The translations under genes were made by a program, and so were the position numbers. A stretch of 64,000 nt of DNA from Minisyncoccota bacterium (GTDB lineage: Bacteria; Patescibacteriota; Minisyncoccia; JAHIHE01; JAGLIN01): assembly GCA_028690055.1 (NCBI GenBank), contig JAQVBZ010000001.1, positions 20,452 through 84,451 on the forward strand. Direction: 5' to 3'. The notes under the pieces were generated by a model. That model was not told the DNA's origin and searched no databases. It saw nothing but the letters and a program-made list of their open reading frames with translations. Shown here one piece after another: positions 23,232-59,120 of the stretch; the stretch's first letter is position 1, and each line of letters opens with the position of its first letter.

Positions 23232-24209
23232 TTAGTTGAGCAATCCCACTTTTTTTATAACTTCCCTCATCGTTTCTTGCGCCTTGATGTCCGCTTTCTC
23301 CGCTCCACGGCGGAGTATGTCTATAACTTGCTCTGGATTTTCCTCCAGTTCCGCCCGCTTTTCTCGAAATATTCGGAAATATTCGGAAATATCTTCCGCG
23401 AGAGCTTTCTTTAGCTCGGAAAATTTGATGCCCTTGTCCTTGAATTGCGCGGTGAAATATTCTTGATTTTTTGCGGAACCGAATTCCTCCAGTAGCGTAG
23501 CATAAAAATCATAAACATCCTCATCGTAAGTGGTAGCGGAAACTGCTTTTTTTATTTTATTTTCGATCACTTCCGGCGAGTCATTGATCGCGATATAAGA
23601 CTTGGGTCCGTGCGACTTGCTCATTTTCTTGCTGGGATCGATCAGACTCATAATTTTCGGAGTGGGAGTGATGACTTCTTTCGGTTCCTCAAAAGTCTGC
23701 CCGAAGCGATTGTTGAAATATCTTGCAATCTTGCGCGTGAGTTCGACATGTTGGAATTGGTCTTGCCCGACCGGAATAGTAGTTGCCTTGTAAATCAAAA
23801 TGTCCGCGGCCATCAAAACTGGGTAATCCAAAAGCCCCATATTTATATTCTGTGTATGTTTTTGTGATTTATCTTTGAATTGGGTCATCCTCTCTAATTC
23901 GGCCAAGGGGGTGACAGTATTGAAAATCCATGCGAGTTCGGTGCAGACCGGCACTTGAGACTGGACATAGATAGTGGACTTTTCCGGATCAAGTCCGGCG
24001 GCGAGGTAATCCAAAGCCAAGTTCATAGTCTGCCTGGCTTTTTCCTTCGGGTCGTAGTCGATGGTCATAGAGTGCAAGTCGGCAATGAAGAAAGTGCATT
24101 CATAACCGTCTTCCTGTAACTTGACGAAATTACGGAGTGCGCCTAGGTAGTTGCCGATATGTAGTTCTCCTGAAGGCTGGATGCCGCTCACGATGATATT
24201 TTTTTTCAT
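23232..24209 (-). CDS. trpS: Tryptophan--tRNA ligase
   Basis: HIGN motif (GELHIGNYLG) and KMSKS (KMSKSHG), 325 aa. Confidence 0.92.
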   Translation of the reverse strand: MKKNIIVSGIQPSGELHIGNYLGALRNFVKLQEDGYECTFFIADLHSMTIDYDPKEKARQTMNLALDYLAAGLDPEKSTIYVQSQVPVCTELAWIFNTVTPLAELERMTQFKDKSQKHTQNINMGLLDYPVLMAADILIYKATTIPVGQDQFQHVELTRKIARYFNNRFGQTFEEPKEVITPTPKIMSLIDPSKKMSKSHGPKSYIAINDSPEVIENKIKKAVSATTYDEDVYDFYATLLEEFGSAKNQEYFTAQFKDKGIKFSELKKALAEDISEYFRIFREKRAELEENPEQVIDILRRGAEKADIKAQETMREVIKKVGLLN

Positions 24210-24481
24210 TTGTTTGTTGGGTTATGTCTTTATAAATTTCTAAAACAAATCAAAGCTTACTGATGTTGTTTCGTCCTATCCCTCTAGTTAATTATAAGAT
24301 ATATGGAAAATTAAGCAATTCGATGTAGAAGTGGAAGATGGCGGACAAGTCTTCTGTCCACCATCGGTTTTTTACTTTTTAAACACCCAAAAGTTTACGC
24401 ACGTACCGTATCTTTTTGTTTTGATTTTTTCTCTTTCTGATAATTTTTCCTATGTTCATATTTCTCAACCTCTCTTTTCGT

Positions 24482-24654
24482 TTAGGCGAATACTTGTTCT
24501 CTGCTGATTTCGAATACCTGTTTTCCGCCCCAGCCTACTATAGCCATCGTCCAAAGCTTGCCGCATTTCTTACAGGTTGTGATAGCTCCTGTTTGAACTT
24601 CAATGGCAGTGCCGCATGTACAGAATTCTTCTACGGATTTTTTTGGTTATTCAT
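24482..24654 (-). pseudogene. Zinc-ribbon mini-protein, paralog A, interrupted by a frameshift in an A7 homopolymer
   Basis: ATG at 24654 reads MNNQKNP then stop. The +1 frame continues KKSVEEFCTCGTAIEVQTGAITTCKKCGKLWTMAIVGWGGKQVFEISREQVFA to a stop at 24482. One extra A in the A7 tract restores a 59-aa ORF, the same length as paralog B. Confidence 0.45.
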
Positions 24655-24829
24655 TTTATGACCTCACTCTCTTTTTTGTTTTTGTAATTTTTTATAAAGT
24701 AAATAACAGCACTCGGGCTGTTATGGTTTTCTTCAATGATTTGTAAGAAAGGCAAAACAGCCTGAAATGTTTTTCAGTTGAGTCGCCAAGTGTGGCAGGT
24801 GTCATTTTGACTTTCTCTTAGCATGGTTT

Positions 24830-25009
24830 TTAAAATTTATTTCCCAGTAGAGGCAGAAGAGTTTTCTTTCCGCAATTCGGACAGATCAACGCTCCTGCTT
24901 TTGTCGGCTCCCTCAATGCTTTATGGCAGTTGCTGCATACGCTACAGTAGACTGCCGTTGTTCCTTGTGAGAAGTGGAATGTTTTGACGGTTATTTTTTG
25001 TTCATTCAT
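24830..25009 (-). CDS. 59-aa zinc-ribbon mini-protein, paralog B (CxxC...CxxC)
   Basis: MNEQKITVKTFHFSQGTTAVYCSVCSNCHKALREPTKAGALICPNCGKKTLLPLLGNKF. RBS AGGAGGA lies 9 nt upstream. Not in the ORF track (<60 aa). Confidence 0.55.
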   Translation of the reverse strand: MNEQKITVKTFHFSQGTTAVYCSVCSNCHKALREPTKAGALICPNCGKKTLLPLLGNKF

Positions 25010-25014
25010 GTCTA

Positions 25015-25160
25015 ATCTTCCTCCTGCTTTTATTTTTGTTTATCACTAAAAAACAGCCCCATCGGGCTGTCGTGGATTTCCTCAAGATATAGCTTCTATA
25101 AGAAAATAGCAAAACAGCCCGACATAGTCTGCCACTTCTTGAAATACATGTTGGTGCTGT
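25015..25160 (-). promoter_or_regulatory. Conserved upstream region of the zinc-ribbon mini-genes (copy B); copy A at 24665-24800
   Basis: Shared hairpin ACAGCCC(N3)GGGCTGT and a downstream block AGCAAAACAGCC.GA. The segments are duplicated together with the ORFs. Confidence 0.45.
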
Positions 25161-25292
25161 TTGTTATTTTCATAAATGTGAATATTATTTCTAATTACAT
25201 TATATACAAAAGATATAATCGGTCAAGAGAGAGTTTTGTTCATGGCAGAAGGCCTGGTTACGACGACCGGACCAACAATCGATAAAAACAAA

Positions 25293-25325
25293 AAACCCGA
25301 CTTTTAAAAATCGGGTTTTTCTATC
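25293..25325. terminator. Rho-independent terminator downstream of RNase J (minus strand; A-run/hairpin/T-run bidirectional)
   Basis: AAACCCGAC ttttaaaaa TCGGGTTT flanked by A- and T-runs. Confidence 0.6.
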
Positions 25326-25335
25326 TATAAAGTTT

Positions 25336-27006
25336 TTACACTTCAATCACTACCGGCAATACCATCGGTCTTCTCTGCGTTTTGTCGAACAGGAATTGTC
25401 CGACTTGGTCACGGATATTGTCTTTGACATAAGCCCAGTTGGCGTCATTCTCCGGCGTTGCAGTCTTGTTGGCAATGTCAATTACGCGCCTCTTGGTTTC
25501 GTTGATCAATTCCGGCGAACCTTTCATATAGATGAATCCGCGCGAGATGATGTCCGGCTGACCTAAGACTTTTCCGGTCTTGCTATCGATGATTACGATG
25601 ATAGTAAACATACCGTCTTCGCTCATCTGCTGTCGGTCGCGCAGTACCACATTGCCCACATCTCCCACGCCGAGTCCGTCCACCATCACATAATTGGATG
25701 GTACTTTCTCTTTCGTGAGTACGGCCGAGTCGGCTGTGAGCTCGATTACTCGTCCGTTACTGGCTACGATGGAATTGCTCAGAGGAACTCCCACCGCTTC
25801 CGCGATTTCCGCGTGCAGCTTCAACATATAATAGTTGCCGTGTACGGGGATGAAGAATTTAGGCTTTATGAGATTTATCATCATCTTTAGATCTTCCACC
25901 TGTCCGTGTCCACCTGCATGGACATCCATCATCTTGTAGTGGACGACATGTGCCTCTTGTCGGTAGAGCTGGTCTTTGAGATTCTGTACAGTCCTTTCAT
26001 TTCCCGGCACTACCGAGGATGAGAAAATCACGGAATCTCCCTTTTTTATGTTGACGAATTTGTGCTCCTTGTTGACGATACGCATCAAAACCGCTTTTTC
26101 TTCACCTTGCGCACCGGTGCACATAAGCGAAACTTGATTATCGGGATAATTCTTGATCTGGTCCGTTTTTATGAGCGTACCTTTCTTGATTTTGAGATAA
26201 CCCAGCTGATGGGCGATTTCTACGTTGTTACGCATACTGTATCCGTCGATTGCAACCTTGCGTCCGTATTTTTCTGACAGGGTAATGATCTGCTGGATAC
26301 GGCTGATCAGCGAGGAGAAAGTGGCCACGATGAGTCGTCCTTCCGCCTTGATGAAGATGTCCTCCAGAACTTTCTGGATTTCGCTCTCACTGATCGAATA
26401 TCCTGGGACTTCCGCATCCGTACTGTCTGACATCAGCGCCAGAATATTTTTGCTTCCGATCTGAGCGATGCGGCCGATATCCGCCGGTTTGTCTGTCACC
26501 GGACTGTGATCGAATTTGAAGTCACCTGTGTGTACCACGATTCCTTCCGGGGTGTGTATTACCAGACCCAATACGCCGGGAATGTTGTGGTTGACGTGGA
26601 AGAATTCTACCTTGAAAGTTCCCAGATTGATCTTGCTGTCGTAATCGACGACATTGATCTTGATGGTGCTGTTGGGGTAGTCTTCCTGTCTCTTCTGGAT
26701 GATGCCGGCGGTAAGTGCCGAGCCGTACATAGGCGGATTTCCCAGCTTGGGCATCAAGTGGGGAATACCTCCGATATGGTCGTAGTGTCCGTGAGTGATA
26801 AATACTCCTTTGATATTTTTTTCTTTACCTTTGAGGTATTCAATGTTGGGGATAATGTAGTCGATTCCCGGCATATCTTCTTCCGGAAATTGCAGTCCCA
26901 TATCAACAATGATGATTTCTTGGCCGTATTCGAACACGGTCATGTTTCTTCCGATCTCCCCCAGTCCTCCCAGGGGAATTATTCGGAGTTTGTTTTTTTG
27001 TAACAT
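25336..27006 (-). CDS. rnj: Ribonuclease J (metallo-beta-lactamase / beta-CASP)
   Basis: HxHxDH motif (ITHGHYDHIGG), beta-CASP motifs, 556 aa. Confidence 0.9.
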   Translation of the reverse strand: MLQKNKLRIIPLGGLGEIGRNMTVFEYGQEIIIVDMGLQFPEEDMPGIDYIIPNIEYLKGKEKNIKGVFITHGHYDHIGGIPHLMPKLGNPPMYGSALTAGIIQKRQEDYPNSTIKINVVDYDSKINLGTFKVEFFHVNHNIPGVLGLVIHTPEGIVVHTGDFKFDHSPVTDKPADIGRIAQIGSKNILALMSDSTDAEVPGYSISESEIQKVLEDIFIKAEGRLIVATFSSLISRIQQIITLSEKYGRKVAIDGYSMRNNVEIAHQLGYLKIKKGTLIKTDQIKNYPDNQVSLMCTGAQGEEKAVLMRIVNKEHKFVNIKKGDSVIFSSSVVPGNERTVQNLKDQLYRQEAHVVHYKMMDVHAGGHGQVEDLKMMINLIKPKFFIPVHGNYYMLKLHAEIAEAVGVPLSNSIVASNGRVIELTADSAVLTKEKVPSNYVMVDGLGVGDVGNVVLRDRQQMSEDGMFTIIVIIDSKTGKVLGQPDIISRGFIYMKGSPELINETKRRVIDIANKTATPENDANWAYVKDNIRDQVGQFLFDKTQRRPMVLPVVIEV

Positions 27007-58923: not shown

Positions 58924-59120
58924 TGTCATTCTGAGCGGAGCAGCGCGGAGTCGAAGAATCCCTTCATCACCACCTGTCCCATCTCATACAGTTTTATTAT
59001 AATGAAGCGATTCCTCGACAGGCTCGGAATGACAAAGTTTATGCCATCTCGTAGGACCCGTAGAGAAGCCGATTTATCGCGTCTTTCTTTGACAGCGGCC
59101 ATAAACTTGGATGTTTTTTG
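58924..59120 (+). repeat. Divergent family-2 variant (TGTCATTCTGAGCGGAG...GGAATGACAA) plus family-3 module copy d
   Basis: Same terminal architecture with a different interior. Followed by CGTAGAGAAGCCGATTTATCGCGTCTTTCTTTGACAG. Confidence 0.65.

Follow-up and report, generated by a model that had tools for sequence, protein, structure and literature searches.

The 1126-nt gap between the genes for RNase J (rnj) and tryptophan–tRNA ligase (trpS), in a 64-kb stretch of DNA (the window) from a Candidatus Paceibacterota bacterium of the candidate phyla radiation (CPR), very probably contains a small operon that has one promoter and is gated twice by ribosome-mediated tryptophan (Trp) attenuators, with a fixed, lineage-specific frameshift in ORF A, the second of its two genes for zinc-ribbon mini-proteins. 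The whole analysis was performed in silico; the region was read on the minus strand, on which the features of the gap and its flanking genes lie, and coordinates are positions of the window. The gap (24210-25335) was found to hold two units of about 350 nt, each composed of a structured leader and a small Cys-rich open reading frame (ORF), in agreement with the tandem arrangement between trpS and RNase J described in the initial annotation. The start-to-start distance of the units was 349-357 nt (repeat families D2, D5 and D6). The block GGCTGTTTTGC was located at 25119..25109 and 24762..24752 and nowhere else within the 64 kb, and both units also contained the partner motif ..AACAGCCCGA, an AACAGCC partner, a terminator-like hairpin, a Shine-Dalgarno sequence and a Cys-rich ORF. 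The conserved leader hairpin, for which a role as a regulatory RNA element had been suggested, gave z values of −3.6 and −4.0 against shuffled sequences (0/200 shuffles as good) and showed covariation, bearing out the suggestion. What the initial annotation had missed was the presence in each leader of a Trp-codon leader peptide together with a terminator/antiterminator pair. Because each leader has both, the leaders are best read as classical Trp attenuators, and this would therefore explain their position beside trpS.

The rnj–trpS regions compared with that of the window came from lineages (denoted L005, L007 and so on) whose TrpS is 73-88% identical to that of the window. The two-leader set comprised the window, L005, L007/L010, L008, L013, L014, L016, L019, L020 and L021; the contigs of L017 and L018 (TrpS 89% identical) start within cargo genes, short of the leaders. 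In the window, the operon promoter is of the sigma-70 type, TTGACC-N16-TATAAT (25199..25226), with 11/12 consensus matches, and the box TTGAC(C/T)-N16-18-TATAAT is kept in 10/10 two-leader lineages. All of these have the promoter and both leaders, and the overall layout recurs in eleven Paceibacterota lineages.

Trp-codon leader peptides and the predicted RNA switch

The leader ORF of the first unit, uORF-B (MKITNSTNMYFKKWQTMSGCFAIFL*, 25096..25173), lies directly after the promoter and has its Trp codon at 25134..25132 (codon 14). It is 25-26 codons long across the lineages, others reading ..FWKWQ.. or ..SWKWQ.., and its frame, stop position and Trp are all invariant in 10 lineages, the sole indel being of 3 nt. 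The last 8 codons and the stop of uORF-B form the 5′ arm of the large hairpin. The leader ORF of the second unit, uORF-A (MLRESQNDTCHTWRLN*, 24774..24824; Trp codon 24788..24786, codon 13), is intact, with 16 codons from ATG 24824, and aligns with its counterparts in L014 and L016. Its start is 5 nt past the ORF B stop in the window and 5-35 nt past it across the lineages. Counterparts of 15-20 codons with 1-3 Trp residues were found in 9 other lineages, as exemplified by MTSIRQSNINHSWWHLN in L005, ..LNWWWQNQSL in L008 and ..TNWWWR* in L021; ATG and TGG are the sole invariant codons of these leader A peptides, the remaining residues varying freely. An in-frame TGG was present in 21/21 leader ORFs (10 two-leader lineages including the window, plus the single-leader lineage L023). 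Each has one to three Trp codons, up to three of them consecutive, and two or three occur in 12/21 (11/20 without L023), the background being 0.82% Trp among the residues of the long ORFs of the window.

In leader A, the Trp codon or codons form part of the 3′ arm of a short hairpin, GCCA-N4-TGGC (window 24786-24800, minus strand). Its 5′ arm varies among the lineages with TGG fixed, and a C follows TGG in 19/20 leaders. This structure may act as a pause hairpin or belong to region 1.

Three or four segments were recognised in each leader by the motifs ..AAACAGC.. (region 1), GGCTGTTTTGC..TTTCTT (region 2), AAGAAA..AACAGCC (region 3) and GGCTGTT followed by a T run (region 4), region 3 being able to pair with region 2 or, alternatively, with region 4 in mutually exclusive helices. 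In leader B, region 1 (AACAAACAGC, 25156..25165) lies inside uORF-B, and its complementarity to region 2 suggests that the two pair; in L023, L014_A and L016_A the fold of minimum free energy is the equivalent 1:2 pairing. Region 2 (25096..25121) is the 5′ arm of the antiterminator, and region 3 (25063..25086) is both its 3′ arm and the 5′ arm of the terminator. The 18-bp antiterminator helix of leader B was 99% pairable in 7 lineages versus about 50% in slid controls. Terminator B, detected in the terminator scan as GACAGCCC-GATG-GGGCTGTT and then TTTT (25048..25071), has an 8-bp stem and a run of six T, and was 94% pairable. In leader A, region 2 (CAGGCTGTTTTGCCTTTCTT, 24745..24764) was recognised as inverted repeat I3, region 3 (AAGAAAACCATAACAGCCCG, 24714..24733) by complementarity and folding, and terminator A, ATAACAGC-CCGAGT-GCTGTTAT followed by TTACTTTAT (24694..24724; 8-bp stem), by the terminator scan.

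Over 20 leaders, the outer antiterminator helix was 99.4% pairable versus 28-51% in slid controls and included a single swap from U-A to C-G, and the terminator was 83.9% pairable versus 31-58%, with compensatory A-U to G-C changes. The covariation score of the terminator was equalled by 1/500 shuffles, and explicit swaps of its stem were observed: ATAACAGC/GCTGTTAT versus ATGACAGC/GCTGTCAT, GACAG/CTGTC and AGCAG/CTGCT. A covariance model built from the 20 leaders found just the two known copies in the 64-kb window, and no further leader copy was detected with it outside the rnj–trpS gap in the whole window or in any of the loci.

For constrained folding, a ribosome footprint was masked at the leader stop or on TGG (mask to +15 for leader B). 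With the ribosome at the stop codon, the terminator fold was obtained for 7/7 leader B sequences, and with the ribosome on TGG (mask to +15) the antiterminator was obtained for 5/7. In leader B, about 15 nt separate TGG from region 2, which itself contains the stop codon.

A simpler form of the element was found in L023, whose rnj–trpS gap of 345 nt consists of a promoter, the leader ORF MKAIQTVNIIWWQD* and a single attenuator directly before trpS. This attenuator, which was outside the training set, was detected by the covariance model at 48 bits (E 2e-9). Its regions 1-4 have changed in concert, from CAGC/GCTG to CAGTC/GACTG, and the folds obtained were 1:2 plus 3:4 for the free RNA, 2:3 for the Trp-stalled state and 3:4 for the stop-codon state. 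The probable ancestral target of the attenuator is trpS.

The following sequence of events is proposed. When charged tRNA-Trp is plentiful, a ribosome translating the leader ORF would run to its stop codon, where region 2 would be covered or would re-pair with region 1; with region 2 unavailable, regions 3 and 4 would form the terminator and transcription would stop. When charged tRNA-Trp is scarce, the ribosome would stall at TGG and leave region 2 free to pair with region 3 as the antiterminator, so that RNA polymerase would read on. The first gate (leader B) would control ORF B, the 59-aa zinc ribbon, and the second (leader A, 5 nt past the ORF B stop) would control ORF A and whatever lies beyond it, conceivably with Trp-dependent read-through into trpS. 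The mini-proteins, being placed under Trp-starvation control, would be Trp-starvation-induced factors.

Several points weigh against this reading. The evidence is computational throughout and comes from about 11 fairly close lineages (TrpS 73-88% identical). No Shine-Dalgarno sequence is recognisable before uORF-B. The base-pair variation is mostly one-sided (U-A to U-G), and the double compensatory changes are scarce and possibly trace back to a handful of events. Two of the leader B sequences, WIN_B and L014_B, fold into the terminator, not the antiterminator, with the ribosome on TGG (mask +15). Leader A is the weaker of the two gates in several respects: its terminators have weak T tracts, the tail of terminator A being weaker than that of B; its stop lies 12-15 nt before region 2, which a terminating ribosome would barely reach; its constrained folds switch as expected in only some lineages; and the conservation of its TGG could be partly structural, as the 3′ arm of the GCCA-N4-TGGC hairpin. 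Finally, control of trpS in the window is not established, since trpS appears to have its own promoter behind a hairpin (see below).

It is very unlikely that the leaders represent a metabolite riboswitch, a T-box or a protein-binding (TRAP-like) leader in which the short ORFs merely happen to lie. Paired terminators and antiterminators occur in every one of these mechanisms, and the rnj–trpS gap of L022, a more distant relative, contains a T-box-like leader, but neither leader of the window matched any Rfam family, at the gathering threshold or at E up to 10. Weak matches to the Rfam Thr, Trp and L10 leaders all fell on the rnj terminator (RF00513 there at E 2.7-6.9). No T-box motif or specifier loop is present in the leaders, and no run of (G/U)AG repeats was noticed on reading them. 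Furthermore, little RNA precedes region 2, and this RNA varies except for ATG, TGG and the reading frame, which fits a coding sensor and not an aptamer.

The mini-proteins and the frame break in ORF A

ORF B (24830..25009) encodes an intact mini-protein of 59 amino acids (aa) behind a Shine-Dalgarno sequence AGGAGG at 25025..25020, as reported in the initial annotation. Its CxxC...CxxC pattern (C25xxC28 and C43xxC46) is invariant in the family, and so is the C-terminal ..L..L.NKF. In the body of ORF A, three Cys (C8, C10 and C24 of the −1-frame body) and a G-W motif are family-invariant; a fourth Cys forms a CxxC in the window sequence and is not invariant in the family alignment. The initial annotation had treated the two as duplicated mini-genes. 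Both are real, conserved genes with obviously similar leaders, but ORF A and ORF B themselves are only distant paralogues (cross-matches E 0.005-0.02), and the obvious likeness is confined to the leaders.

AlphaFold2 models of both mini-proteins were all-beta, with a predicted local distance difference test (pLDDT) score of 76.6 for ORF B and 81.6 for ORF A. By their Cys knuckles and these models, both proteins are predicted to be zinc ribbons. Fold searches of the PDB with the two models returned generic zinc ribbons, none of them significant (E about 0.9 or above for ORF B); the top match of ORF A was LysW, at a non-significant E of 0.22. ORF B had no match in a word index of 5.8 billion proteins, and an exhaustive HMMER scan of 1.8 billion representatives yielded just two true small homologues, in addition to spurious matches to Cys-rich repeat proteins. 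Six relatives of ORF A were found among the 5.8 billion proteins. Judged by these searches, both mini-proteins appear to constitute tiny clade-restricted families. Anti-TRAP was considered as an identity for ORF B and rejected: the match to PF15777 scored 15.5 bits (E 0.018) versus a cut-off of 32 and was one of 30 equally weak zinc-ribbon matches. ORF A gave no match to PF15777.

Behind its Shine-Dalgarno sequence GAGTGAGG (24669..24662), ORF A opens with a 0-frame stub, MNNQKNP* (24631..24654), which reads ATG AAT AAC CAA AAA AAT CCG TAG from ATG 24654. The break lies exactly at a run of seven A (A7; T7 on the plus strand), as the initial annotation had it, although the run was mapped here to 24638..24644 and not to 24625-24635; the 0-frame heptamer is A_AAA_AAT. 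The body of the conserved ORF A family, KKSVEEFCTCGTAIEVQTGAITTCKKCGKLWTMAIVGWGGKQVFEISREQVFA*, follows in the −1 frame (24482..24643), which is open to TAA 24484..24482 and homologous to intact ORFs in relatives (tblastn E 1.7e-10). The −1 frame is considered genuine coding sequence because ORF A of the relatives, only 25-40% identical, is intact and homologous, and the frameshift is considered specific to the lineage of the window because the intact ORFs have no A run at that place. Eight As would restore the frame, as had been pointed out, but the product would be of 57 and not 59 aa, and its first knuckle is CxC, not CxxC.

The exact TrpS of the window is encoded on contigs of four other run/sample accessions from the same species-level population. 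These four further assemblies are 99.86-100% identical to the window, and their gap is exactly 1126 nt with no indel; therefore all of them carry A7. Three of the four differ from the window by 2-3 single-nucleotide polymorphisms (SNPs), and the SNPs of the population, 4 in 1126 nt, are all outside ORF A. No A8 allele was found at the consensus level in the window and the four further assemblies.

The most likely interpretation is a recent, fixed one-base deletion (A8 to A7) that would inactivate ORF A, possibly with some leakiness through slippage. Apart from this break, neither leader A nor the ORF A body shows damage. A decaying pseudogene had been anticipated for the case of a uniform A7 together with an ORF not conserved in relatives. 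A7 is indeed uniform at the consensus level, but because the ORF is conserved in relatives, copy A appears to be a young frameshift and not an old pseudogene in decay. Three other explanations rank below the recent fixed frameshift, in the order programmed recoding, phase variation and sequencing error.

Programmed recoding, in which a low level of full-length ORF A would be produced through −1 frameshifting at A_AAA_AAT or through insertion of an extra A by RNA polymerase on the A7 template, is unlikely. The heptamer is formally slippery and in the right phase, with the 0-frame stop two codons later, and leader A is intact including its Trp leader peptide, so the regulatory apparatus of ORF A would still be maintained. 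Programmed frameshift sites are, however, normally conserved, and this one is absent from all the relatives. No stimulatory structure was found downstream of A7 (z +0.63), and runs of at least 7 A or T are common in the window, which holds 48 of them. Transcriptional slippage can rescue genes disrupted at A/T runs, but counter-selection of slippage-prone runs typically becomes apparent only from about 9 nt (PMC1088944).

The chances are lower again for the phase-variable contingency gene proposed in the initial annotation, in which slipped-strand mispairing would switch ORF A on (A8) and off (A7). The homopolymer does fall at codons 4-6, the gene has a good ribosome-binding site, and the downstream frame is still open for 53 codons with all family-invariant residues kept. 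Nevertheless, the window and 4/4 further assemblies have A7 with no length variant (consensus assemblies, in which a minority A8 fraction is possible), seven As are short for efficient slippage, and the tract is not conserved, the intact ORF A of relatives having no A run. Hardly any weight is given to the other explanation offered there, a homopolymer sequencing or assembly error in a really intact ORF A: homopolymers are classic error sites, but the tract is identical base for base in four other accessions processed with different assemblers (ENA k141 contigs, Logan contigs), 3/4 of which differ from the window elsewhere by SNPs.

Cargo of the rnj–trpS gap and flanking signals

The immediate cargo of the attenuators in the window is the pair of mini-proteins, and cargo of Trp metabolism (trpB, trpS) is seen in relatives. 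Homologues of ORF B were found behind leader B in 7 other lineages, and those of ORF A behind leader A in 6. L007/L010 have a bona fide trpB (TIGR00263, 577 bits versus a cut-off of 392) after leader B, and ORF B is reduced there to a C-terminal remnant. Leader A of L016 and L021 precedes genes for a GNAT-like protein and an M20 deacylase of the ArgE/DapE type and then trpS, and no hairpin stands in between.

ORF A, too, is a remnant in the trpB-carrying lineage, and the distal slot is taken by a different Cys-rich ORF of 42 aa (MEKLYYCCGERNEDNCQKLGACCQKKGHCGK...; L007:2748-2876 and L010:3254-3382, plus strand), which contains an A8 run. The cargo pair after leader A (L016:1461-3443, L021:1512-3474, L017:1-1970 and L018:12-1169) is made up of a 240-257-aa protein, the L016 copy of which gave a weak GNAT match, and the M20 deacylase of the ArgE/DapE family; it may be a Trp-releasing deacylation pair. 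LysK, the partner of LysW (the top, non-significant fold match of ORF A), is also an M20 hydrolase.

A more far-reaching proposal, put forward tentatively and with a rather low expectation that it is right, is that ORF B and ORF A represent a new kind of Trp-starvation effector in CPR, tiny zinc ribbons made only at low charged tRNA-Trp, and that the rnj–trpS gap is a swappable "Trp-stress cassette" site. Two effector roles are conceivable: that of regulators functionally like Anti-TRAP, by analogy, and that of carrier or adaptor proteins acting with the GNAT-like protein and the M20 deacylase found in the same slot in sister lineages. Hints of a carrier role are the best fold match of ORF A, the amino-group carrier LysW (non-significant), and the invariant G-W motif.

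Adjacency to trpS or rnj, which the initial annotation had suggested checking in other genomes, was seen in the two-leader lineages, in which the element lies in the rnj–trpS gap; two more distant relatives lack the element. In L006 (TrpS 52% identical) the element is absent and rnj and trpS are adjacent, and in L022 (TrpS 71% identical) no attenuator was found in the rnj–trpS gap. The gap of L022 contains a T-box-like leader with a AAGGTGGCACCACG motif and a terminator (L022:1204-1406, plus strand; RF00230 at 42.8 bits, below the gathering score of 93), located upstream of a gene for a FAD-binding protein and then an IS200-type Y1 transposase.

The flanking genes in the window are rnj (27006..25336; beta-CASP, RNase_J_C and MBL domain matches in Pfam) and trpS (23232..24209; PF00579 match, E 5e-71). 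The intrinsic terminator of rnj (25290..25321), a 14-bp stem followed by a T run, stands between rnj and the attenuator operon. At the other end of the operon a hairpin (GATGGTGGACA...GTCCGCCATC, 24337..24365) lacks a good T run and is probably a weak terminator; at the same site L005, L007 and L008 have hairpins of differing sequence. It is followed by a promoter-like box of trpS, TTGCTTA-N-TATAAT (24291..24318), conserved in L005, L007 and L008, and a TATAAT-like box upstream of trpS was also found in L016, L017, L018 and L021. Because the hairpin and the TTGCTTA..TATAAT box intervene between the operon and trpS in the window, as they do in L005, L007 and L008, control of trpS in this genome is limited to possible read-through. 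A possible third small ORF of 26 aa, very basic (MNIGKIIRKRKNQNKKIRYVRKLLGV) and of uncertain status, lies behind GAGAGG at 24379..24459. It showed no similarity, in all frames, to the third small ORFs of the relatives, which have unrelated-looking ORFs of 36-46 aa (..EEAR..F..) at this position.

Automatic gene callers had called zero genes in the 1126-nt gap in 4/4 assemblies, skipping even the intact 59-aa ORF B. As a lesson for annotation, the supposedly "empty" 1.1 kb contain a minimum of four real small ORFs along with two regulatory RNAs.

Other small elements were observed in the relatives. Between rnj and the attenuator promoter of L005 lies a DnaJ-like CxxCxGxG mini-ORF (..DACGECKGLG..CRECKGKG..; L005:3755-3957, plus strand) that is off-frame from its sole ATG at an A7 run (TCAAAAAAACAT) and needs a +1 shift or the loss of one A. 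An intact 63-aa counterpart is present in L016 (624-815); L005 is a single metagenome-assembled genome, in which an assembly error is possible. An element resembling a miniature inverted-repeat transposable element, with the inverted ends GTCATYCYGAG... and internal ..CGAAGAATC.., occurs in the window (58925-59033) and in the rnj–trpS gaps of several relatives (L005:3514-3560; L007:426-545; L021:~687), and inflates a spurious 143-aa gene call in L007/L010.

Comparison with known attenuation systems

Leader-peptide attenuation senses tRNA charging directly and needs physical coupling of transcription and translation. Its occurrence in Paceibacterota, as a well-conserved and duplicated Trp attenuator, would bring this classical mechanism into the CPR, for which no report of leader-peptide attenuation was found in the literature searched, and would offer a handle on the response to Trp shortage of reduced, probably Trp-auxotrophic episymbionts. 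The genes proposed to be switched on are trpB (indole salvage) in one lineage, the GNAT-like/M20 deacylase pair in others and, in most lineages, the two clade-restricted zinc-ribbon mini-proteins. The latter, usually missed by gene callers, are testable candidates for new Trp-related functions.

In E. coli trpL, a leader peptide with Trp codons is followed by segments that form helices 1:2, the 2:3 antiterminator or the 3:4 terminator, and a stalled ribosome selects 2:3. The leaders described here share with trpL (RF00513) the Trp codons located a few codons before the leader stop and, as predicted, the four-segment switch logic, and the free RNA of L023 folds into 1:2 and 3:4 as in the textbook model. 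They differ in showing no sequence or covariance-model similarity, RF00513 having no match on the leaders, and in the phylum, Paceibacterota, where the element occurs twice in tandem. The window peptides have one Trp codon each, with up to three in relatives, and the cargo consists of zinc-ribbon mini-proteins, trpB or the M20 deacylase, located beside trpS and not in trpEDCBA.

For some Streptomyces, classical attenuators have been predicted to precede trpS (trpS2), and one is known for E. coli pheST (PMC1262725). In both cases an aminoacyl-tRNA synthetase is under leader-peptide attenuation through its cognate codons, and L023 has exactly this arrangement for trpS. In the clade of the window, by contrast, cargo and a second attenuator are found between the first leader and trpS, which has acquired (or kept) its own promoter; the lineage is also unrelated, with no sequence similarity.

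B. subtilis turns on the synthesis of Anti-TRAP (rtpA), a zinc-binding protein about 55 aa long, when charged tRNA-Trp is low (PMC10327191). The mini-proteins resemble it as small zinc-binding proteins tied to low charged tRNA-Trp, a property predicted here from sequence. Anti-TRAP, however, is induced via a T-box and not by a leader-peptide terminator switch, and no Anti-TRAP structure was among the listed fold matches of ORF A and ORF B. To our knowledge, no TRAP partner is known in these bacteria.

A serial arrangement is reported for Salmonella mgtCBR, where a single transcript is controlled by two successive attenuators, with two leader ORFs (PMC3641672). The mgtCBR attenuators are described as sensing different signals within one long leader, whereas the present locus has two paralogous Trp sensors with a structural gene between them. 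By its predicted features, the element would be a classical trpL-type attenuator in mechanism that falls outside the Rfam Trp_leader family, and the attenuator pair is set apart by its tandem duplication, its swappable cargo and its zinc-ribbon products.

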